Below the pieces are notes generated by a model. It searched no databases. It was given only the letters and a program-made list of their open reading frames with translations, and was not told the DNA's origin. 44,234 nucleotides of DNA from Escherichia phage vB_EcoS_CEB_EC3a. How positions within the stretch are numbered: the stretch's first letter is position 1; each line of letters begins with the position of its first letter. The stretch is from the sequence record NC_047812.1; one strand, given 5' to 3'. The translations under genes were made by a program, and so were the position numbers. Shown one piece after another: positions 3,162 through 42,312 of the stretch.

Positions 3162-3266
3162 ATGAGTGAATTAATTAAAACTATCGCGGACTATCCATTT
3201 GCTTCGCTTTTTCTTGCTCTTGCAATATATGAAATTGTAAAGATTATTGTAAAATGTATTAAATAG
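3162..3266 (+). CDS. 34-aa hydrophobic micropeptide (MSELIKTIADYPFASLFLALAIYEIVKIIVKCIK)
   Basis: Short ORF between two modules, CGAGG RBS; single predicted transmembrane helix; stop TAG in next palindrome. Confidence 0.45.
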   Translation: MSELIKTIADYPFASLFLALAIYEIVKIIVKCIK

Positions 3267-3306
3267 CACGAATTTCTAAAACATTATCGGGGTATCTTGC
3301 TATAGT
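3264..3306 (+). promoter_or_regulatory. palindrome-promoter module (TAGCACGAATTTCTAAA, TATAGT 3301-3306)
   Basis: Motif family member; leader TTACCCCATCAAAACGAAAC. Confidence 0.6.
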
Positions 3307-3336
3307 TACCCCATCAAAACGAAACAGGAAGCAGAA

Positions 3337-14991: not shown

Positions 14992-15311
14992 AACGAGCGG
15001 TGTATCTACAGTACCAGTCAGAGCCAACTGATGCCGAACTGGAAGCTATTGGGATGCGCCGCTCTGATTACGAAGACGAAGAGCCTGAAGTTTTAAACTT
15101 CGACGAAAACATGATGAAAGCGTGGGACATTTATTGTTCAATGGCTACGCAGTGGAGAGTCGGAGCTAACGGAGCTACAGGGATGGATTACAACGTGCTA
15201 AATTTCCTCTTTAGAGTGTATAATGTCTCTGAAGAAGAATTGGTGCTCAGCGATTTACGCATCCTTGAAGCTAAGGCTCTTGAGATGATGGATAACCTGA
15301 GAAAAAAATAA
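14677..15311 (+). CDS. tail assembly chaperone GT fusion (via -1 frameshift at 14982-14988)
   Basis: Downstream ORF 15000-15311 is in -1 frame relative to G and lacks an own RBS/ATG. Confidence 0.55.
14982..14988 (+). other. -1 programmed frameshift slippery site A_AAA_AAC
   Basis: Heptamer AAAAAAC in G frame one codon before stop TAA 14989-14991; -1 frame stays open to 15311. Confidence 0.6.
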
Positions 15312-18744: not shown

Positions 18745-19500
18745 ATGTTAAGTCCAAAGTTTGAAAATCAGTTGCAAAGTCTTTTCCCAGGCGAGATTGT
18801 GACTCTAATCCAGGTTGACGGAACCTCATTTGGCTCTCTCGTTTATTCGTTCCACAATGAGAACATTTCATACACGCCAGAGGAAATCATGCTAGCCCAG
18901 ATGAATGGGGAGCCGCTACCAGAGAAGACTATTACATTTCGCGGTGAAGAGTATGGCCCTAGACCTTTCGGTATATCTGGCATCAATATGACCTCTGACG
19001 GCAAGGCCAACAAAGTTACACTAACAGTATCAAACGTAGACCAGCGCATTAGCGCCTTGATTCGAACATACAACGGACTTGTTAAAGCTAAGGTTACCAT
19101 CTGGATTACTACGCGAGATAACATCAATGAAGACGGGAGTATTGCTGATGGAGATTATCGCAAATTCGTTTACTTCATTGAGCGACCTAAGCAGGTTGAT
19201 TACAAAACTGCGTCATTTGAGCTTAGTAGCCCGATGGATATGGATGGCATTTATATCCCAGCGAGACTTGTTCAGTCTGTTTGCTACTGGGCTTCTAGGG
19301 GTTGGTATCGTAGCGGGAATGGGTGTGCTTATGCTGGAAATAGATACTTTAATAAGGATGATGAGCCAGTGGCAGATCCTTCATTAGACTTCTGTGCAGG
19401 AACTGTTAACAGTTGCAAGCTTAGATTTGGTGAGAATAATCAGTTAGATTTTGGCGGCTGCGCTGCCGCAAGCCTTCAGGCTAAAGCCAACCAGAGTTAA
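18745..19500 (+). CDS. minor tail protein (lambda gpL-like) with C-terminal Cys cluster
   Basis: Four cysteines near C-terminus (CYWAS..GNGCAYAG..FCAGTVNSCKLRFG) as in Fe-S cluster of gpL. Confidence 0.7.
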   Translation: MLSPKFENQLQSLFPGEIVTLIQVDGTSFGSLVYSFHNENISYTPEEIMLAQMNGEPLPEKTITFRGEEYGPRPFGISGINMTSDGKANKVTLTVSNVDQRISALIRTYNGLVKAKVTIWITTRDNINEDGSIADGDYRKFVYFIERPKQVDYKTASFELSSPMDMDGIYIPARLVQSVCYWASRGWYRSGNGCAYAGNRYFNKDDEPVADPSLDFCAGTVNSCKLRFGENNQLDFGGCAAASLQAKANQS

Positions 19501-25544: not shown

Positions 25545-25606
25545 GTTTCGTTTCGATGTGGTAATAGTATCGAATCCTTGCGATCAGTGTTTAGCAATTA
25601 GTGCTA
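25545..25606 (-). promoter_or_regulatory. palindrome-promoter module, minus strand (TAGCACTAATTGCTAAA; -10 TACTAT; leader TTACCACATCGAAACGAAAC)
   Basis: Reverse complement of 25545-25612 matches module; palindrome TAG is stop of Rha-like gene. Confidence 0.6.
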
Positions 25607-28018: not shown

Positions 28019-28061
28019 TAGCACGAATCGCTAAAGACAAAATTAAAAGGTGGGGTATGAT
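28019..28061 (+). promoter_or_regulatory. palindrome-promoter module (TAGCACGAATCGCTAAA, -10 TATGAT 28056-28061)
   Basis: Motif family member; 20 bp spacing. Confidence 0.55.
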
Positions 28062-28090
28062 TACCCAATCAACAACGAACGAGGTTAAAG

Positions 28091-29223: not shown

Positions 29224-29245
29224 GGCCCCTTTCGGGGCCTTTTTT
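29224..29245. terminator. bidirectional intrinsic terminator
   Basis: GGCCCCTTTCGGGGCC hairpin flanked by A-run and T-run. Confidence 0.8.
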
Positions 29246-32054
29246 ATGAAGCTGTATTTACCTGAAGATATGCACCATTAGTTGCACCAAACCATGCGTA
29301 AGCAGATCCGTAAGTTGTTGGGTTATCATTTAAGATGAAGTCACCCGCTCTAATTACGCACTTTTCTCCATATTTATCAGTTGGCCTTGCACTAAAACCA
29401 TAATCAACATATCTAAAACCAACCTTCGTTACGTTCTTGTTAAGAGGAAAAATCCTTAAGAAGCTAGAAGCCCTAAAGTCATTATTCCTGAAAATTCCTC
29501 CTGTAAAGTTATCCATATCAAACATTGTGGTTAAACTTGAAGCAACAGTATTCATGAACTTGTTGCCTTCATATGTCGGAGCTACTACTTCATAGCCAAC
29601 TCTTAGCTGAACAAATCCTCCATCAAGAATATTGTCCTTAATTGTTGGGTACTGACCGCCGATTGATAACGCCCCAAAGCCAGGTGTAAATTTGCAACTA
29701 TTATTACTAAATATAGTACCAACCCAACCCTGATTTGTAATATATGGCGCTTTCGTGTCTGTCATGGTGTTTCCGGTGATAATCAATCCATTCTTAGCCT
29801 GGACTCCCTCCTGGTAGCCCTGAATCGCTACTCCACCACCAATCATAATGTTATCAGCGATAAGAATATTACTTAGACCTTCGTTAACACCCCAATCACT
29901 TTCTGAATCATTTGTTATCAGTAAGTAGTGAGAAGAAGCCCTGCCAGTAGCGTCTGTAGTTATGATGCTTGTATTCCCTTTGCATATAACATTGTTTGCC
30001 GCAAAAACCTCAACAAATATACCAGAGCCTTCGTAGTAGTTATCAGTAACCGTTATGTTATTGCCAGCAGGCGTTATACGTGACTGGATAGATATTGGAT
30101 AATAGAACTTGTTGGCGTGAGCATAAGACCTTTTGCTTTTTTCGGATATTGCATAATCCTCCGCGAAAGTGTGCCATGCCCTTCCTGACTGTTTTGTTGT
30201 GTTTCCGATAAACTCTGAGTAGTCACAGTTTCTTGTGAGTAAGCAGTAGTTAGCGTTGTATCTGAAGTTTGAATCTCTAAGAGATACGAATGCATTAGAC
30301 AAACCATTAAGAGCATCGGCATTAACAAAGGCCCTCGAGGCATTAACCTCCATACGCTCAATCAAAACTGATGCGCATCCTTCAACCATAAATCCAAACC
30401 AGTCTTCTCTTGGTTTATGCGTTGTATCTAATGGTTGGATTGAGTAATCTGAAAAGTCACTATTCCAGTTGAGGCCGCTAGCTTTAAGTGTGCAATTCTT
30501 TGCGCCGAAAACAACCCTCTCAGGTGATGAACTTCCAGATATATCGATCTCAACATCATTATTGGCAAAAATATCAACATTAAGGCCATTAATGAAGAAT
30601 GCCGTCTTCCTTAATACGTTGTACTTATCATTGTACTGAATATCAGTGGAGAATGAGACTTTCAGTCTTCCAGCGCTAATTCTTACCTTCCTGTTTGTAT
30701 TGTGACCAAGGTTTATACATGCCATAACCGAGGCGTTTGATTCATTAACTCCAGACACATCATGACCAGCCCATTCGGTATGGATATCATCAACACCTCC
30801 CGTAAACCTAACCCAGCAACCATTTTCACCTGGTGATGTCTCACCCGCTCCGCTAAGGAAGTCTGAAAGCGTGGAATATGTACCATCAAATGGAACCGTT
30901 GGGCTAAAAACAGTAATCCCGTTATGTTCGCTCTTACTTACTAATGGACTCCAGTAGAACAGACCGCCACCAGAGTTTGATCCAGAAATGTAAGACCTTA
31001 CATTTGCTAAATTTTTATTCTCATTTGTTTGTTTGATTAGTTCGTAAATTGAATCAACTGAAGATAGTCCTAAATTACTCCTGGCAAGGCTTTTATCCGC
31101 AACATCAGAGAAATTCAATGATTTTTGAAAAGTCTCATTTTTTGAGTAAACATCAAGTAAACCTCTTACTCGCTGGGCGTTAGCGCCTCCAGCTTCATTT
31201 CCGCCAGGCAAGTAGATTGACTCTCTAACATAGTAATTCCTAACACCACCGGAAGTATTGTAACTGATGTGATAACGTCTAAAGTTGCCATCGATACCGG
31301 TGTAGGTTGACACTTGAATATTTCTTGATCCAGTCCCAGTTGCTCCGCCCTCTACAGATATAACAAGCGTAGCATTGCTTGGTACTTTTAATGCTTCTGG
31401 TGCATTTGTGCAAGCAGAGAAAGCAACCCTATAATGACCGCCAACAACAAAATTAAAAGTTTGGAAATCAAGTTCACTTAAAATATTGCTACCATTACCG
31501 ATACCCCAACCAGAAAGTGTAACTAGTGTTCCAGCATCACCAGCACTATTAATTGCCTCAATAGTAGCATCTCTCGCTGATGTGGTTGTATCTCTTGCAC
31601 TAACGGCAGTAGCTGCGCTCTCTGCGGCAGCAATCTGGCTAGCTAAAGCATCCGCTGCTCCTTGCACTGACTGGCTTGCCAATTGCTCAAAGCGAGGCCA
31701 ATCAAAAGAATCCTGACCAATGAAATCAATCAGGCTCTGAATGCTAGTTTCCCTACTCTGATAATAACGAAGTGTCTCCGCTACATTTTGAGCTAAACCC
31801 TGAACACTAATACCATCATGTGCAAGGATTGCATAACCAGTGCCAGCGGGAACGGTTTCACCATTAGGGTTGTATACAGCCATTGATGTGTCGCTGGTGA
31901 TTTCAGAGATAGTGTAAATCTGTACTGGCTCCGTTTTAAACACTAAAGTAGCACCAACGCGAATAAGTGTTAGTGGCATGGTCCATTGAGTGCCAACTCC
32001 AGTAACCTGACCGTTCGCTGCTAAACTGGCAGTGCCAGTATCATAAATTGCCAT
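29244..32054 (-). CDS. tailspike / side tail fiber with parallel beta-helix (putative polysaccharide depolymerase)
   Basis: 936 aa; repeated beta-helix-like motifs (NNVICKGNTSIITTD, NILIADNIMIGGG, IITGNTMTD, IKDNILDGG); start at ATG 32054 with GGAGAC RBS. Confidence 0.7.
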   Translation of the reverse strand: MAIYDTGTASLAANGQVTGVGTQWTMPLTLIRVGATLVFKTEPVQIYTISEITSDTSMAVYNPNGETVPAGTGYAILAHDGISVQGLAQNVAETLRYYQSRETSIQSLIDFIGQDSFDWPRFEQLASQSVQGAADALASQIAAAESAATAVSARDTTTSARDATIEAINSAGDAGTLVTLSGWGIGNGSNILSELDFQTFNFVVGGHYRVAFSACTNAPEALKVPSNATLVISVEGGATGTGSRNIQVSTYTGIDGNFRRYHISYNTSGGVRNYYVRESIYLPGGNEAGGANAQRVRGLLDVYSKNETFQKSLNFSDVADKSLARSNLGLSSVDSIYELIKQTNENKNLANVRSYISGSNSGGGLFYWSPLVSKSEHNGITVFSPTVPFDGTYSTLSDFLSGAGETSPGENGCWVRFTGGVDDIHTEWAGHDVSGVNESNASVMACINLGHNTNRKVRISAGRLKVSFSTDIQYNDKYNVLRKTAFFINGLNVDIFANNDVEIDISGSSSPERVVFGAKNCTLKASGLNWNSDFSDYSIQPLDTTHKPREDWFGFMVEGCASVLIERMEVNASRAFVNADALNGLSNAFVSLRDSNFRYNANYCLLTRNCDYSEFIGNTTKQSGRAWHTFAEDYAISEKSKRSYAHANKFYYPISIQSRITPAGNNITVTDNYYEGSGIFVEVFAANNVICKGNTSIITTDATGRASSHYLLITNDSESDWGVNEGLSNILIADNIMIGGGVAIQGYQEGVQAKNGLIITGNTMTDTKAPYITNQGWVGTIFSNNSCKFTPGFGALSIGGQYPTIKDNILDGGFVQLRVGYEVVAPTYEGNKFMNTVASSLTTMFDMDNFTGGIFRNNDFRASSFLRIFPLNKNVTKVGFRYVDYGFSARPTDKYGEKCVIRAGDFILNDNPTTYGSAYAWFGATNGAYLQVNTAS

Positions 32055-32078
32055 TGTGTAAAGTCTCCATTTGTAAAG

Positions 32079-32095
32079 TAGCACTAATTGCTAAA
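32079..32095 (+). promoter_or_regulatory. palindrome TAGCACTAATTGCTAAA in + orientation between two minus-strand genes
   Basis: Motif family member; possible downstream -10 TGTATAAAA at 32119-32127 would read antisense into primase gene. Confidence 0.4.
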
Positions 32096-32120
32096 GTGGA
32101 TTGTATCATCTTTCATGTAT

Positions 32121-32143
32121 AAAAAAACCTCCCGAAGGAGGTT
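32121..32143 (-). terminator. intrinsic terminator (minus strand) after primase gene
   Basis: Reverse complement AACCTCCTTCGGGAGGTT + T7. Confidence 0.75.
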
Positions 32144-33065
32144 AGTCTAGTAATTCGCTTGCTTTGTATATTCGCTTTCTTATGCCTGACTTGAAAAAAT
32201 TATCATCATTTGGCATTACCACATCAAGATTGCGATCGTCAGCAACAGCGAGTAAATCAAAATCGTGGCGAGTACAAGCGACGCGTAACTTGTAGTTTCT
32301 AAGCGCATAAGCAACCATTTCCATGTTGTAGCTGGAGTGGCAAACAAGCACACAGCGGTTGCCAGTAGCAATGTGAACGCGATAGCCGTCAATGAGATTA
32401 TCGACCAGATAAGCGTACTCATCATCTTTAAAGGCGCCAATAATAGAAACAGACTGGCGAGTATAATCTTTTGCAGCATAGCTAACATCTCCATCTTCAT
32501 TGATAAACATTACATTGCACATATCATCTGATATGCCGTCACTATAAGCCATAAAGCACGGTACTGCGTGTATTAGTTCGCCTGATTTAGTCCTGCCAAC
32601 ATCAAAACCAAATTCGCTATAGATACCCTCGTATATACTGAGCGGTGTTGATTCTACTCTTTCCGTCCTTTCCATTATCTCAAGGCATCTTTCGTGGTCA
32701 ATCTGCGCGCCCATTTTATAAAGCTTAGTTCTTGATGCTTGCTTGTTTGCCTTAACTATAACCTCAATTGGTGTTAAGTTCAGCCAGTCACCAAGCAAAT
32801 TCACTGAATCGGCGAAGGACGATCCAGTGCACTTCATGACCCATCCTATACCTGAGTCACTTCCGCATTTCGAACAAACTGCCGCGCCATTTCCTTTTTC
32901 ACTGCCTATTTCGTCGGTAAATCTGAATCTGTCAGTGCCAAGGCAGTATGGGCATGGTCCGTGCTTCTTACTTAGGTGTCTATCATTCCAACCAAGTTCC
33001 TTTGCATAAAATAATTTCCACAATCCGGCCATCTTAGGTATAACTTCATTCTTATCGTAATTCAT
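32142..33065 (-). CDS. DNA primase (zinc-ribbon containing)
   Basis: Cys motif CPYC...CSKC near N-terminus; adjacent to helicase region. Confidence 0.6.
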   Translation of the reverse strand: MNYDKNEVIPKMAGLWKLFYAKELGWNDRHLSKKHGPCPYCLGTDRFRFTDEIGSEKGNGAAVCSKCGSDSGIGWVMKCTGSSFADSVNLLGDWLNLTPIEVIVKANKQASRTKLYKMGAQIDHERCLEIMERTERVESTPLSIYEGIYSEFGFDVGRTKSGELIHAVPCFMAYSDGISDDMCNVMFINEDGDVSYAAKDYTRQSVSIIGAFKDDEYAYLVDNLIDGYRVHIATGNRCVLVCHSSYNMEMVAYALRNYKLRVACTRHDFDLLAVADDRNLDVVMPNDDNFFKSGIRKRIYKASELLD

Positions 33066-33541
33066 TTGCTTAACCCGTGATTTTCGTGAAAGTTGTATTT
33101 TCTCTCTGCTTCAATTCTTACTTTATACGCCTGCTCTGGAGTATCGAAGTTCCCAAGGTGTAGCTGCTTACCGTCAACCTTGATGTGAGCCTTAAATTTT
33201 CCGTGATTTAGCTTTGCCACTCCACAATAACCAGTTGTTGATAAAACGCTAAGCTTGCAATTTCTTGAGTTACCTTGATTTGTTGTTACTCTTAGGTTTT
33301 CTATTCTGTTATCTAATTTGTTATGGTTTATATGATCAATGTAGTCGCCATTTTTAAGTTCTCCATTAAACATCTCCCACACAACTCTATGTACATAAGT
33401 CCTAAAGCCATTAACAGACACTTTGTAATAGCCAGATGTAGATAGTGAGTTGCACTCATCGCCAACCTTAACACGTCTTGCAGTGCTAATCTTCCAATGC
33501 AATTTGCCATCTACATAGTAAAAATAATCATGCCAGTTCAT
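33062..33541 (-). CDS. HNH homing endonuclease with AP2-like DNA-binding domain
   Basis: DYIDHINHNKLDNRIENLR HNH motif; GYCGVAK...GKQLHLGNFDT AP2-like segment. Confidence 0.8.
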   Translation of the reverse strand: MNWHDYFYYVDGKLHWKISTARRVKVGDECNSLSTSGYYKVSVNGFRTYVHRVVWEMFNGELKNGDYIDHINHNKLDNRIENLRVTTNQGNSRNCKLSVLSTTGYCGVAKLNHGKFKAHIKVDGKQLHLGNFDTPEQAYKVRIEAERKYNFHENHGLSK

Positions 33542-33556
33542 TTTCTTCTCTCCAAT

Positions 33557-33587
33557 AAAAAAAGGATGTACCGATTATGGCACATCC
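33557..33587 (-). terminator. intrinsic terminator (minus strand)
   Basis: GGATGTACCGATTATGGCACATCC hairpin preceded on + strand by A7 (T-run on minus). Confidence 0.6.
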
Positions 33588-33593
33588 AATTAT

Positions 33594-34067
33594 TTACTCT
33601 TTAGCTTTTCGTGCGGCTTCGTTAGCTGCCTTGATCTTTCGCCATGAGCGACACTCTGGTTTAGTTGCTAGCTCAGCCTCAGTAACAACACGCAGCATAT
33701 GACGCTTCTTGCAACGTAGAGTTAGCGGTTTCCCGTTACCGTCGAATTGCAGATCTGGTCGGCAGAATGTAGCGCGAAAACCTTCTCCATTTCGCTTATA
33801 GTAGTTGTGCGACAGCTGGGCGCCGCGCGCAGAAATCATCCCACGCTTAAACCATTCTTCTACAGCCTGAGGTGTCACCTTTAACTGCTTTGCGATATTT
33901 GCCTTTGTGCCGAAGAAATCAAGAACAATCTCCAACCGTGCGCGCAACCCAGCCCTTACCTCGTCTTTTAAAACGTAGTAGCCTGAAGGTCGTTTCCGTT
34001 GTTTTTTGTCTTCAGTACGAATGGTTCCGTTGTTCCCGTTAATTGTTCGCTTGTCTACTGCATTCAT
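33594..34067 (-). CDS. putative HTH DNA-binding regulator
   Basis: Basic protein with helix-turn-helix-like NIAKQLKVTPQAVEEWFKRG segment; divergent from helicase gene. Confidence 0.4.
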   Translation of the reverse strand: MNAVDKRTINGNNGTIRTEDKKQRKRPSGYYVLKDEVRAGLRARLEIVLDFFGTKANIAKQLKVTPQAVEEWFKRGMISARGAQLSHNYYKRNGEGFRATFCRPDLQFDGNGKPLTLRCKKRHMLRVVTEAELATKPECRSWRKIKAANEAARKAKE

Positions 34068-34168
34068 TTCATTACCTCAATAGCATTTTTTGTTAAAAGT
34101 CATTCCGATTTAATGTTATTATTGTACTCAATTAAACGCTACAAGACAATTTTTATAGGAATTTAGAT

Positions 34169-36163
34169 ATGTTGCCTATCGAGAAGCTGGTTGCCAACTT
34201 TGATAAAGAAAGAATTAAACAGATTCAGAAAGATTACCAGTTTGGCGAGATAACCCCTTACGAGTTCCAATGCGTTACATTTGATGCAATTGGGAAGGCT
34301 ATTGGCAAGTATGAGGCTCCATTTATCGCAGACCTCTCGGTATCTGCTGGTAAGACAATCATCCTGGCTATGATTGGTAAGCGCATGGAGCAGCTTGGGC
34401 TTCCTTATATGGTTCTTTCTCGCCAGTCAGAAATTATCAGCCAGAACTCAGAAGAGCTTCGTAATTTCGGCATCCGTAACAGCGTCTATTGCGCTGGCCT
34501 TAACGTTAAATCAGTTTATTACCCAACCATAGTTGCCAGCGAGGGTACGGCTGCTAACGGATTGTTTAAGGGGCTTGGTGACTATGTTCCGGCAGTTATC
34601 GCTATCGATGAATGTCACATGCTTGACACTATGGATATAGTTGAAGCAGAGGAGAACGAAGAAACATTTGAGCAAATGAGCACAAAGAAAGGAGAGATGG
34701 TTTTCAAGGATGGCGTTAACACTGGATTAATCGGTACTGGTCGTTCGCAATACACTCTAATCATTACAGAGATGAAACGACGTTGTCGTGAAAAGTACGG
34801 TCGGGAGCTTCGTATATTCGGCCTTACTGGTAGCCCATATCGTAACAATGACCATATCGTCGTTAGCAATCCAAACATCCGTGGGTTCTGGCGCAAAACA
34901 GTGATCCAGGTCCCAACCAATTACCTTGTTGATTTGGGATTCGTGGTACCTACTGTTTACGGTGAGGTAGGTGATTTGGGTTATGACCTTGCGGAGTTTG
35001 CGCCGGATGGCAGTGATGGTGTGAAAGATTTCAGCAAGAAAGAAATGGATGCTATGCAGGAAAAAATTCATCAAAACCAGTCCATGACTCAAAAGATTAT
35101 GCAGTTCGCAGCCAAGTTTATGGAAACTCGTAACGCAGCACTAGTAACTTGCTCAGGCAAGCGGCATTGCGAGGAAGCAGCCGCGGCGCTTCCTGATGGT
35201 GTAACCTGGGCTATAGTAACTGACTCTACTGGTGAGAAAAAGCGTCGTGAGATTCTTTCTGACGCAGCTGAAGGTAAGTATAAATTCATCTTTCAGATTG
35301 GTTGCCTCACAACCGGCGTGAACGTTCCGACATGGGACACGTCAATAATTCTTCGCAAGGTTGGTAGCATCACGTTACTGATTCAGCTTTTGGGGCGAGG
35401 TATGCGAATTCTTAAGAAGAAGCACAAGGAAATGGGAATGGTTAAGGATGATCACGTGGTGCTGGACTTCGCTGGTACTCTTGATGACATGGCGGAATTG
35501 TACTTTGACCCAATCATAGAGGAAGTGCAGGACCAGAAATTTAAGTATTCACGCAAAGTCGGCGATGAGCCAAGAATATGTCCGGCCTGTAGTTACGAGA
35601 ACTCTCCTTTTGCTCGTCGTTGCAATAACGTAATTGACGGGAAGCGTTGTGAGCATTTTTTTACATTTCGCTTATGTGAAGATATAGAGGACCCGCAGAC
35701 AAAAGTTACTATTAAGAAAGGTTGTGGTGAAAAGAATGATATCGCCGCTAAAAACTGCCGCTGCTGCGGAGAAATGCTTATTGACCCTAACGCAAAATTG
35801 TCTGGAAAGATGTATCGAAAAGGTGATTGGTTGAGAGTTTACGGATTCAGCATTGGATTAACAAAGAACCAAACTGGAATCGTTGCTCGCTATGAAATCA
35901 TGTCGCATAGTGGGGATAGGTTTGTTGCTTACGAAACTTTCTTCCCAGAGAGTGACCATCGAGTTTGCTCTGTAAAATGGAAAGCATTTTGCTCGAGTCA
36001 CATAGAGAACAGGACTGAGGCTTTTAGAATTGGCAGATTGCGTAATGCTAAGATGATTATGACTAATGCTCACCTTTTCCGTGCGCCATTAAGGATTACA
36101 CACCGTAAGAACCAGAAGTCTCAAGATATTATCGCAAACAAATCATTTACTATGGAAGACTGA
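34169..36163 (+). CDS. SF2 DEAD/DEAH-box helicase with C-terminal Cys-rich zinc-ribbon region
   Basis: Walker A SAGKT, Walker B DECH; C-terminal CPAC..C..C and CRCCGE clusters. Confidence 0.8.
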   Translation: MLPIEKLVANFDKERIKQIQKDYQFGEITPYEFQCVTFDAIGKAIGKYEAPFIADLSVSAGKTIILAMIGKRMEQLGLPYMVLSRQSEIISQNSEELRNFGIRNSVYCAGLNVKSVYYPTIVASEGTAANGLFKGLGDYVPAVIAIDECHMLDTMDIVEAEENEETFEQMSTKKGEMVFKDGVNTGLIGTGRSQYTLIITEMKRRCREKYGRELRIFGLTGSPYRNNDHIVVSNPNIRGFWRKTVIQVPTNYLVDLGFVVPTVYGEVGDLGYDLAEFAPDGSDGVKDFSKKEMDAMQEKIHQNQSMTQKIMQFAAKFMETRNAALVTCSGKRHCEEAAAALPDGVTWAIVTDSTGEKKRREILSDAAEGKYKFIFQIGCLTTGVNVPTWDTSIILRKVGSITLLIQLLGRGMRILKKKHKEMGMVKDDHVVLDFAGTLDDMAELYFDPIIEEVQDQKFKYSRKVGDEPRICPACSYENSPFARRCNNVIDGKRCEHFFTFRLCEDIEDPQTKVTIKKGCGEKNDIAAKNCRCCGEMLIDPNAKLSGKMYRKGDWLRVYGFSIGLTKNQTGIVARYEIMSHSGDRFVAYETFFPESDHRVCSVKWKAFCSSHIENRTEAFRIGRLRNAKMIMTNAHLFRAPLRITHRKNQKSQDIIANKSFTMED

Positions 36164-36624: not shown

Positions 36625-36662
36625 TACCACATCGAAACGAAACACATAGAGAGAGAAACAAA

Positions 36663-39524: not shown

Positions 39525-40010
39525 ATGAAGCAAAAGCTGCTAATTAGCGCGGTTACGGCTGCGGCAATATACATCGCAGCGCCGCTTATTGAGCTCGTTG
39601 AGGGTGTGGAGAACAAGCCTTACATGGACATTGCCGGAATCCCTACAGTTTGTTCCGGTATTACTGGTCCTGACGTTGTTTGGGGTAAGACTTACAGCAA
39701 TAGTGAGTGCCGTAACCTGCTGGAGAAACACATCCAGATTCATGCTAAGTATGTTCAGGATGCAGTTACCTACCCAATCGCACCGCAGACAAGGGCAGCG
39801 TTAATCAGCTTTAGCTATAATGTTGGCGGCTCAGCGATGAGGAAGTCTACGGCTGTAAGGTTAATCAACCAGGGTAAAGTGGAGCAAGGTTGTAAGGCTT
39901 TGAGCCTTTGGAATAAAGCTACCGTTAATGGCAAGAAGGTTGTGGTTAAGGGCTTGGTAAACCGCAGGAATGAGGAGATTAAGTTATGCTTAAGCGGATT
40001 GCAGCGTTAG
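39525..40010 (+). CDS. SAR endolysin (T4-lysozyme-like muramidase)
   Basis: N-terminal signal-anchor-release segment SAVTAAAIYIAAPLI; catalytic E...D...T spacing in EGVENKPYMDIAGIPTVCSGIT. Confidence 0.8.
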   Translation: MKQKLLISAVTAAAIYIAAPLIELVEGVENKPYMDIAGIPTVCSGITGPDVVWGKTYSNSECRNLLEKHIQIHAKYVQDAVTYPIAPQTRAALISFSYNVGGSAMRKSTAVRLINQGKVEQGCKALSLWNKATVNGKKVVVKGLVNRRNEEIKLCLSGLQR

Positions 40011-40375
40011 TAATGTGCGTAGCTTTATATGGATGTTCAGCAACATCTGCTCTGACCGGATTAATTGGCAGTAAGCCAGAGATTAGCGCTCAAGCTGGTG
40101 CAGAAAACAATAAGGTTGGTCTTGGTTTAACGAACAGGGTTGACTCAAGTAACTCCAGCGATGCCACAGTTAAGGATTCCAGCGTGGGCTCACTGGATAG
40201 TTCTAGCGGGAAAAAGACTGCTGATAATTCGATTAAGGCCTCTACAATCACTGCCGAAAAGATTGAGATTACCAATAACGACTCATCAGCGCTTCCGTGG
40301 ATTGGAACAGGAGCGATGGGTTTGCTGGTTCTGATTCTCCTTGCCTTAATCTTAAGACGTAAAAAAGCCTCCTAA
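39986..40375 (+). CDS. unimolecular spanin (u-spanin, T1 gp11-like)
   Basis: N-terminal lipoprotein signal with lipobox LYGCS plus C-terminal TMD GAMGLLVLILLALIL and basic tail. Confidence 0.7.
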   Translation: MLKRIAALVMCVALYGCSATSALTGLIGSKPEISAQAGAENNKVGLGLTNRVDSSNSSDATVKDSSVGSLDSSSGKKTADNSIKASTITAEKIEITNNDSSALPWIGTGAMGLLVLILLALILRRKKAS

Positions 40376-40728: not shown

Positions 40729-42312
40729 TTACCCCAGCAGTCTAGGATTAATGTAAACTTTATCACCAATCAGGCACGTGTAGTTTTTCTCATCAAGCAT
40801 TGGCAGCAAGTGATCTTTAATCTTCGTCATTACTCCAGCCTGAGCCTCGAATGGCTTAACCTTACGAGCCGCTTCATACAATGAACGAATGCCAACTACG
40901 CCCTTACCGTTCTTACCTTGCTTGATCAGAATATCAATCAGCTTATTCATCTCGGCATTGTCGCCAGCGTGACCAGCGGCGTTAGCAGATGACAAATAAG
41001 TCTTGCTAAGTTCCTGGAACATAATTACAGCCTCTTGCATGGTTTCGAGTTCAATCTCTCTGGACTTCTGCGGACTCCCGCCATTTGGGTTAAACCAGTT
41101 ACGCACAGTGTGAAGGACCGCTGCAATCCTGATAGCCTGCTTATCAAACTTACCAAGCGCACCGCGAAGCATTGTGTGAGAATACTTACCGCCGTCAGCG
41201 AGGTGAGGCTCCATTTCCTGACGTGCTCGGTTGAGGTACTTCATCGCTGAGTTGCTTACTGTCAGCTTAACATCTTGCTCATTCATTATTTCGTGAACCA
41301 AGCGGAAGTAGTCAGCCTTCAGGCCACCATCAATAGGTTCGTAAGTTGAGTCTCCATTCTCATCAACGAATACACGTTCGCCGAGGAATGACTTCTCGCG
41401 CACAAGAAGGAAACGTTCCGATACACCGATACCACGCGCGCCAGCATTCATGATTGCATTGATTGTTTCATCCTGCGCAATTACAGAGATGCAACCCATA
41501 GCAACGAAACTCATGTTGTTTTCTGCGTTCGCACGCGCGATAGACACGTTACCCGCATCCCATGCTTTCAGTACAAGTTCGCTGTTCGTTTTCTTGGATC
41601 CGTCACCGTAGGTCATGCCAAGCAGCGAGTTCACGCTCGTCGCCTCATCCGAGATGACTGCGAAGTTGCCCTGGCGGTTGTTGATTCGAGCAAGGCCTTC
41701 AGGCGTGGTATCTGATACTGGGAATACGATATCGCACAACTTCTCCAGCTTTTCTTCCAGCTCCTCTTTCTCCTCAAAAAGTGAAGCCATCTCTGACGGG
41801 GATTTTTCCTGCTTCATCTCTTTCGATAATGTAGATAGCTTAGCCATAATCTTTTTGCGCTCACGCTTGCGCACTTCATTAAGTCGCTCAGTCTCAGTAA
41901 TCATTGGAGCAATCGAAAGTGAGTTAATGGCCGACTTACCAGTTGATGGCGGTTGGCTTGTCACGACGTAAAGAGATGTTGGCTGTTGGGTGCCATGATA
42001 CTCGACAGTAAAGCGTCCAAGCATTGCGGCAGAAATACACCCAAGGAAGTGCATATAAGCTGAAGACTCTGGAAACTGAACTGAACGAGCGATGTTAGAT
42101 GACAATTTACCAACAACATCAATATCATTTCCTAGTGAGATTACGGGGTATTTGTCATTTGCAGCATCAATCTCCACTGGTGCTTTCCAGAATGATTGAG
42201 ACTGGCGATAGCCATTGGCATTAATGGCGACTCGCAGTGGCGGGAGGTTGTCTGCGGCAGCAATTGCCATAACCTGTTCAACAGATAGTTTATCTTCGTT
42301 GAAATCAAACAT
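40729..42312 (-). CDS. large conserved hypothetical protein with P-loop-like motif (possibly DUF3987-like ATPase)
   Basis: 527 aa; PPSTGKSA Walker-A-like segment; GGAGAG RBS; has degenerate paralog at 893-1414. Confidence 0.6.
   Translation of the reverse strand: MFDFNEDKLSVEQVMAIAAADNLPPLRVAINANGYRQSQSFWKAPVEIDAANDKYPVISLGNDIDVVGKLSSNIARSVQFPESSAYMHFLGCISAAMLGRFTVEYHGTQQPTSLYVVTSQPPSTGKSAINSLSIAPMITETERLNEVRKRERKKIMAKLSTLSKEMKQEKSPSEMASLFEEKEELEEKLEKLCDIVFPVSDTTPEGLARINNRQGNFAVISDEATSVNSLLGMTYGDGSKKTNSELVLKAWDAGNVSIARANAENNMSFVAMGCISVIAQDETINAIMNAGARGIGVSERFLLVREKSFLGERVFVDENGDSTYEPIDGGLKADYFRLVHEIMNEQDVKLTVSNSAMKYLNRARQEMEPHLADGGKYSHTMLRGALGKFDKQAIRIAAVLHTVRNWFNPNGGSPQKSREIELETMQEAVIMFQELSKTYLSSANAAGHAGDNAEMNKLIDILIKQGKNGKGVVGIRSLYEAARKVKPFEAQAGVMTKIKDHLLPMLDEKNYTCLIGDKVYINPRLLG

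Follow-up and report, generated by a model that had tools for sequence, protein, structure and literature searches.

The closest described system is that of phage TLS, whose re-annotation (German, Kropinski, Misra et al., Phage 2024, PMC11447400) reported a 21-nt direct repeat, aaATAGCACnnnTTGnTAAAA, in 21 places, 18 of which are listed as not wholly inside genes. They are described as oriented "in the direction of transcription", with start codons about 76 nt downstream, and T1, Rtp, and Rogue1 are noted there to carry the repeat as well (PMC11447400). The function was left open by the authors, who offered a stoperator, an enhancer site, or an UP element as options, and whose count of consensus sigma-70 promoters in TLS came to just three, including that of a "transcriptional regulator" gene beside primase (PMC11447400). 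In the literature that we searched there was no transcriptome, start-site map, or regulator study for T1-like phages, nor were there expression or binding data for any of these phages.

Two other systems serve for comparison. The stoperators of mycobacteriophage L5, to which the TLS authors compared their repeats, are also many short intergenic sites, mostly co-oriented, as here; they differ in being the sites of a temperate-phage repressor that silence transcription through them, and the copy studied below is, moreover, reversed relative to its gene. Lambda cI at OR2/PRM and the restriction-modification controller (C) proteins activate from a dyad at -42 when the -35 element is weak or absent, and repress from a dyad that lies over the core promoter. 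The likeness to these proteins, which we treat as an analogy only, consists of a -42 dyad and a candidate regulator with a Cro/C-protein-like fold; they act at a single switch region, whereas the phage factor proposed here would act at about 18 sites spread over a virulent genome.

The copy that concerns us is found in Escherichia phage vB_EcoS_CEB_EC3a (NC_047812.1), whose 44,234 nt were analysed as a whole (hereafter the window), and which is a T1-like siphophage of E. coli (Drexlerviridae, near Braunvirinae). For region 31000-34000 the best match was Escherichia phage vB_EcoS_UALMA_PCEc3 (PCEc3), with 97% identity over an aligned part of 73%; identity to RobRod40, DTL, Rtp, and others is 80-93%. 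The best match covers just 73% of the region because PCEc3 lacks an HNH homing endonuclease gene (33062-33541, minus strand), which is flanked by the regulator gene and the primase gene and overlaps the start of the latter; the HNH gene is present in DTL, RobRod40, and AugustePiccard, is missing also from Rtp, and looks like a mobile insertion polymorphism. Three records named after other hosts matched as well: Pseudomonas phage PsgS01F (PP134917; 97% identity, length equal to PCEc3), Campylobacter phage A110b (MG065688; 89% identity over the intergenic region), and Campylobacter phage A14a (MG065641; a primase match with 42.5% protein identity). Since these match E. coli T1-like phages, the Pseudomonas syringae and Campylobacter jejuni host names suggest contamination or wrong host attribution. 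The features of the locus are the following:

29244-32054, minus strand: tail-fibre/tailspike gene, 936 aa from the ATG at 32054, annotated in relatives as tail fibre protein
32065-32068, minus strand: Shine-Dalgarno sequence GGAG of the tail-fibre gene (sequence and alignment)
32076-32096, plus strand: reverse-oriented 21-nt Drexlerviridae repeat, AAGTAGCACTAATTGCTAAAG (27.3 bits)
32100-32108, minus strand: predicted extended -10, TGATACAAT (TGaTACAAT), without usable -35 (sequence and conservation)
32118-32123, plus strand: TATAAA, earlier put forward as an antisense -10; in our judgement it arises simply from the T-tract of the terminator
32119-32143, minus strand: primase intrinsic terminator, AACCTCCttcgGGAGGTT followed by seven T (terminator scan; kept in all relatives aligned)
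32142-33065, minus strand: DNA primase gene (Zn_Ribbon_Prim, E 8.9e-11), stop codon at 32142-32144

The 936-aa tail-fibre protein had no match in a Pfam search. An earlier sequence-only reading of this DNA had described a palindrome copy at 32079-32095, in plus orientation between the minus-strand primase and tail-fibre genes; its position and orientation are confirmed by the sequence, and the two flanking genes agree with the domain match and with the annotation of the relatives.

The repeat is thus intergenic, with the tail-fibre start codon on one side and the primase stop codon on the other. It contains an exact TAGCACTAATTGCTAAA at 32079-32095, and what had been called a palindrome is merely a 5+5 bp dyad (TAGCA-N5-TGCTA, here TAGCA-CTAAT-TGCTA at 32079-32093, plus strand) within an asymmetric 21-mer. 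The distance between the half-site centres is 10 bp, or one helical turn, as would suit binding by a helix-turn-helix dimer. At up to three mismatches the 17-mer pattern has 17 matches in the window against 0.18 expected, a number reached in none of 100 shuffles, and four copies are exact (3089+, 25590-, 26349-, and 32079+). A scan with a weight matrix built from the co-oriented copies returned 18 strong copies, scoring between 21.6 and 32.4 bits (99.9th percentile of the background, -0.9), and 32076-32096 is the only one of the 18 that is not co-oriented with a downstream gene.

This is the same intergenic element as in TLS, with about 18-21 copies per genome and the same A/T/G central-triplet subtypes, and the window copy matches the TLS consensus and fits its intergenic placement. 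In contrast to the TLS copies, with their orientation along transcription and their long distance to the start codon, it points against the transcription of its flanking genes and is located only 25 nt upstream of the ATG, past the -10.

The remaining copies, about 17, are co-oriented with their genes and share one layout, which in the aligned copies reads aaaTAGCACnnnTTGCTAAA, 20 bp, TATAGT, the leader TTACCnCATCGAAAC, a ribosome-binding site, and ATG. Candidate repeat promoters were collected from several genomes by a loose pattern search, so that a few probably spurious intragenic sites are included in the numbers that follow. The -10 lies exactly 20 bp past the 17-mer in 48 of 57 candidates (window, T1, and Rtp), and in the larger set from four genomes it is a good one, matching TATAAT at five or more of six positions in 59 of 76, with a TGn in 31 of 76 against ~6% by chance (1/16). 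A -35 element was sought in the same 76 candidates and none was found beyond chance: the mean best match is 2.68 versus 2.49 in random sequence, and no candidate reaches 5/6. The TTGCTA of the repeat was considered as a -35 and rejected, since all canonical copies have it 22 bp away from the -10, which is too far. The dyad centre of the canonical copies falls near -42, the position of class II activators and of lambda cI at PRM. The fixed distance of 20 bp from a -10 without a -35 points to activation at these copies, unlike at stoperators.

Several further observations were made on the canonical promoters. A leader sequence about 24 nt past the -10, TTACCnCATCGAAACGA (e.g., 36625-36645), is conserved in most repeat promoters, and is present also in those of Klebsiella Webervirus N141; conservation of this strength downstream of the start site suggests a second signal, which may be a start-site context, a processing site, or a translation signal. 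In many canonical promoters inverted repeats bracket or overlap the -10, with arms that vary from copy to copy while complementarity is kept (GGGGTA/TACCCC, GGGGTT/AACCCC, AGGCCA/TGGCCT, GGGGAA/TTCCCC, and AGGGCA/TGCCCT). Such loci are found in the window at 3264-3330, 28019-28075, and 25550-25606 (minus strand), in T1 at 1451, 2270, 3536, 4345, 4865, and 47616, and in Rtp at 29629 and 37796. Perfect stems of at least 6 bp occur in 26% of the 76 promoters versus 4-6% in shuffled or swapped-spacer controls (maximum 13%), and this 26% is an undercount, because the stem criterion skipped longer stems extending into the hexamer. The inverted repeat could stabilise the 3' end of the upstream transcript, bring about a pause, or, as a cruciform, expose the -10.

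Reversed repeats were also noticed in the plus-strand structural region of T1 (15069-15085 and 18833-18849, both minus strand) and of TLS (15024-15044). The one before the major head gene overlaps TTGACG-16-TATTAT in T1 and TTGAAC-16-TATATT in TLS, and the second in T1 lies before ST40. The major head gene of the window and of Rtp has no repeat in front, but TTGCGT-16-TATAAT instead. A T-tract hairpin stands directly past the head-gene repeats of T1 and TLS, and these copies, for which the -10 in use is only putative, were not counted as firm support.

On the minus strand, the interval between the two genes reads as a putative promoter of its own. From the primase side the order is the terminator hairpin with its seven T, ATACATGAAAGA, the extended -10 TGATACAAT, CCACTT, TAGCAATTAGTGCTA, CTTTACAAAT, GGAG, ACTTTACACA, and ATG. 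The predicted element resembles that of extended -10 (TGnTATAAT) sigma-70 promoters and stands directly past the terminator. The dyad begins 7 nt past the -10 hexamer, with 6 nt between, so that, if transcription starts 7 nt past the hexamer, the position that we infer, the dyad would cover about +1 to +15.

Alignments of this interval from 22 Drexlerviridae were inspected, comprising Braunvirinae, Rogunavirinae, T1/Tunavirinae, Tempevirinae, Nouzillyvirus, Vilniusvirus, a Klebsiella phage, and unclassified records. Three blocks stand out as conserved, namely the terminator, the TGnTAnnnT motif, and the reversed repeat. Of the 22 phages, 19 have retained TGnTAnnnT while the flanking bases drift, and its hexamer moves among valid forms (TACAAT, TATACT, TAAAAT, and TATTAT); the three others, Mishu, TLS, and Sazh, have TTGCAT-17-CATAAT in its place. 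The reversed repeat is likewise kept in 19 of the 22 phages, 6-13 nt past the -10, and the full layout of terminator, TGnTAnnnT, reversed repeat, and ribosome-binding site was reported in 19/22. JK06 retains the extended -10 and has lost the repeat, and TLS and Sazh keep only a degenerate remnant, which explains why Table S1 of the TLS paper has no entry at this position (PMC11447400); the repeat is therefore dispensable in some lineages. Its subtype varies by lineage (GAA, TAA, TTT, and a TTGTTA variant in MM01, Mishu, and K50evo12), and is always among those used elsewhere in the respective genome, a turnover through valid forms that argues for selection on binding rather than for a frozen sequence. 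The sequence-only reading had offered, as an alternative, that the palindrome acts regardless of orientation as an operator upstream of the tail-fibre start. This suggestion of an operator fits the alignments well; independence of orientation stays hypothetical, as all relatives have the one orientation through common descent.

A second reversed copy is located about the gene of the candidate binding protein, in a region with the following features:

33564-33619, minus strand: putative HNH/primase promoter, with a weak repeat (33599-33619) and, past it, the hairpin of the regulator gene's terminator (33564-33587)
33594-34067, minus strand: gene for a helix-turn-helix "transcriptional regulator" of 157 aa (homologous to T1 gp23 and Rtp52), the candidate binder of the repeat
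34078-34098, plus strand: dual-use repeat, canonical for the helicase promoter (plus strand), reversed for the regulator gene, whose ribosome-binding site it adjoins
34121-34149, minus strand: sigma-70-type regulator promoter TTGTCT-17-TACAAT, upstream of the reversed repeat (promoter scan)

The equivalent promoter is TTGAAT-17-TATAAT in T1 and P57 in TLS (Table S1 of PMC11447400). Between this promoter and the gene, the reversed repeat ends 1-3 nt before the ribosome-binding site, and this arrangement is found in 10 phages, among them T1, Rtp, DTL, PCEc3, JK06, K50evo12, atuna, N141, and Sazh. In the window the -10 hexamers of the divergent helicase and regulator promoters are adjacent, so RNA polymerase on one promoter would exclude it from the other. 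At the other end of the gene, its terminator (GGATGTGC-CATAAT-CGGTACATCC and then seven T) carries in the loop a CATAAT exactly 20 nt past the weak repeat, and the Rtp equivalent of this weak-repeat promoter is at 34814. Similar fusions, in which the hairpin of the upstream gene fills the 20-bp spacer or carries the -10 in its loop, were observed, besides 33564-33619 (minus strand), in T1 (39977-40030 and 41957-42010) and Rtp (2360-2410), the 20-bp distance from repeat to -10 being kept regardless.

The regulator has a weak match to P22_Cro (E 3.9e-6, below Pfam's cutoff). Its structure model is confident (pLDDT 87) and has a core nearest to the all-alpha Cro proteins Xfaso1 and N15 Cro (TM 0.72 on target, E only 0.04), and the fold matches include the restriction-modification controller proteins C.Esp1396I and C.BclI; the model thus points to an all-alpha Cro fold, with a match that is weak by E-value. 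It is the sole transcription factor annotated in T1 and Rtp, whereas KPN N141 annotates a second putative regulator, and its homologues are found on contigs of phage-genome size, ~45-52 kb. In each of five Drexlerviridae genomes that encode a homologue there are 12-15 core dyads. None was found in a Skatevirus that has a related primase but lacks the homologue; this is a single negative genome, and phylogeny confounds the comparison.

In our view, 32076-32096 is most likely an operator located inside the tail-fibre promoter. The dimeric factor of the -35-less promoters would bind here too and would lower transcription, and to this reading as a whole we give a probability of roughly 0.5. Starting from the observed sequence, geometry, and conservation, and from the lack of a -35 at the canonical copies, we infer the binding protein and the direction of the effect in addition to the transcription start. 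A dimeric helix-turn-helix protein, for which the phage Cro-fold regulator (33594-34067) is the most probable candidate, would bind the dyad near -42 at about 17 other promoters of the window and there replace the missing -35, as lambda cI does at PRM or as controller proteins do. At the tail-fibre promoter the bound factor would instead occupy the space of RNA polymerase, leading to less tail-fibre transcription, and the reversed repeat by the ribosome-binding site of the regulator would have the same effect on the regulator gene. We count towards the operator role that the 32079 copy is a complete repeat and has no -10/leader block. The regulator gene, with a sigma-70-type promoter followed by a reversed repeat in 10 phages, appears as a parallel case. 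That the reversed site might activate the tail-fibre gene in class II fashion was considered and rejected, as the canonical distance would put the -10 on the ATG. The reason why a general activator would repress a structural gene is not obvious.

The same dyad could alternatively work in the RNA, as a 5' hairpin (UAGCA-N5-UGCUA) that stabilises the tail-fibre mRNA or modulates access to the ribosome-binding site. The predicted start would place it at the extreme 5' end of the transcript, the repeat adjoins the ribosome-binding site in several phages and at the regulator gene, and the 5-bp hairpin is included in the minimum-energy fold. That fold, however, is a weak one, with an energy of -4 kcal/mol (z = +0.6) that is matched in 149 of 200 shuffles. 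Compensatory changes are absent among the relatives, and the MM01 variant disrupts the possible stem by an uncompensated A-C mismatch, yet equals a common variant of the repeat. Conservation extends to the asymmetric flanks of the repeat, for which a hairpin has no need, and the canonical copies stand upstream of their own transcription starts. We therefore consider an RNA element unlikely.

A binder other than the phage regulator would leave the operator role unchanged, and host Lrp is the candidate for which a case can be made. Its E. coli consensus is yAGhAwATTwTdCTr (PMC5554404). The repeat fits 11-13 of these 15 positions, with a full fit in both 5-nt arms (TAGCA/TGCTA), and Lrp is conserved across the enterobacterial hosts of Drexlerviridae phages. 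The consensus is nevertheless degenerate, and where its conserved A/T core has wATTw, the commonest subtype reads C-G-A-A-T; the core is a misfit in the GAA and TAA subtypes. We estimate that the arms would be matched by ~0.6% of arbitrary 5-N5-5 dyads, and the repeat was compared with many consensus sequences. T1 grows well in rich medium, a condition in which little Lrp is present. Moreover, the repeats co-occur with the phage regulator, itself under one of the few consensus promoters. Binding by Lrp is accordingly improbable in our judgement, and the phage protein is retained as the candidate binder of the proposed operator.

It may also be asked whether the reversed repeat has any function here, or is a relic or neutral passenger kept by common descent only. 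Its loss or degeneration in JK06, TLS, and Sazh, which occurred without loss of the gene, speaks for such a reading. Against it, the repeat is retained in at least six Drexlerviridae subfamilies or genera while the adjacent intergenic bases diverge, its subtype has turned over and is still always valid, and its place is fixed at 6-13 nt downstream of the -10. A functionless passenger is thus quite improbable.

The sequence-only reading had favoured transcription in the other direction, in which the plus-strand repeat, together with the TATAAA at 32118-32123 (within TGTATAAAA at 32116-32124), would drive transcription that runs across the primase terminator and into the primase gene in antisense direction. 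The repeat is indeed exact and complete on the plus strand, the A+T-rich hexamer downstream matches a -10 at 5/6 positions, and the hairpin has no T-tract on that strand and so would not terminate plus-strand transcription. The hexamer, however, starts 24 nt past the dyad core and 22 nt past the 17-mer, an excess of 2 bp over the usual spacing; it lacks the -7 T, and neither a -35 nor a TGn is nearby. Scored for the -10/leader block, the downstream sequence gives -14.5 bits at the usual offset of 20 and +0.5 bits when the offset is set to 22 (median 16.5), which is background level: the block is absent. The plus-strand TATAAAAAAA comes from the seven-T tract of the primase terminator, whose complement, together with a TAT, makes up the hexamer. 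Of 15 relatives, 9 have CATAAA, CACAAA, or AATAAA in this place. With no downstream block, the wrong spacing, an origin in the T-tract, and poor conservation, the antisense promoter is unsupported and we regard it as very unlikely. A promoter scan of the region listed no plus-strand promoter at TATAAA, an Rfam search of it gave no family at E <= 1, and no conserved plus-strand open reading frame was found behind the reversed copy among the relatives; a hidden plus-strand gene antisense to the primase 3' end was rejected, as frame, start, and length of the open reading frame vary by relative and MM01 has none.

Other recognition elements were dismissed on position or spacing. The -24/-12 consensus of sigma-54 is TGGCAC-N5-TTGCW, with GG and GC 10 nt apart; the repeat (TAGCAC-N3-TTGCT) has AG for GG and 8 nt, not 10, between AG and GC, and it may be noted that all repeat copies resemble the -24/-12 element (TGGCACG-N4-TTGCW) shortened by 2 bp. 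The positions or spacings of the T4 MotA box, the lambda CII repeats, IHF, and Fis do not fit either.

The operator reading can be extended, more tentatively, to a view in which one Cro-fold protein and about 18 repeat sites make up the whole transcription programme of T1-like phages; with all its steps included we hold this possible, if rather doubtful. The protein would be made from one of very few host-type promoters and would turn on all -35-less promoters from -42, while reversed sites over the start or leader would shut the self-sufficient promoters, namely those of its own gene and of the tail fibre. Genome replication may multiply the sites, titrate the protein, and thereby time the expression of the repressed genes. 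If this view is true, the reversed copy is the main pointer to a repeat that serves as a protein site in both directions rather than as an UP element or a stoperator.

The repeat family is already published, and the mechanism proposed is ordinary among bacterial regulators. T1, on the other hand, is one of the seven classic coliphages, and a backward repeat on a conserved extended -10 promoter makes the old question of how T1 controls transcription with host RNA polymerase directly testable. The model predicts a binder, activation versus repression according to site position, and a start for the tail-fibre transcript. The paper on phage SU57 asked if the tailspike gene behind the terminator is transcribed at all (PMC7718038), a doubt on which it bears that a conserved predicted promoter stands between the terminator and this gene. 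Tail-fibre and tailspike modules are swapped to re-target Drexlerviridae phages for therapy, and the signal for their expression would lie within these 90 bp.
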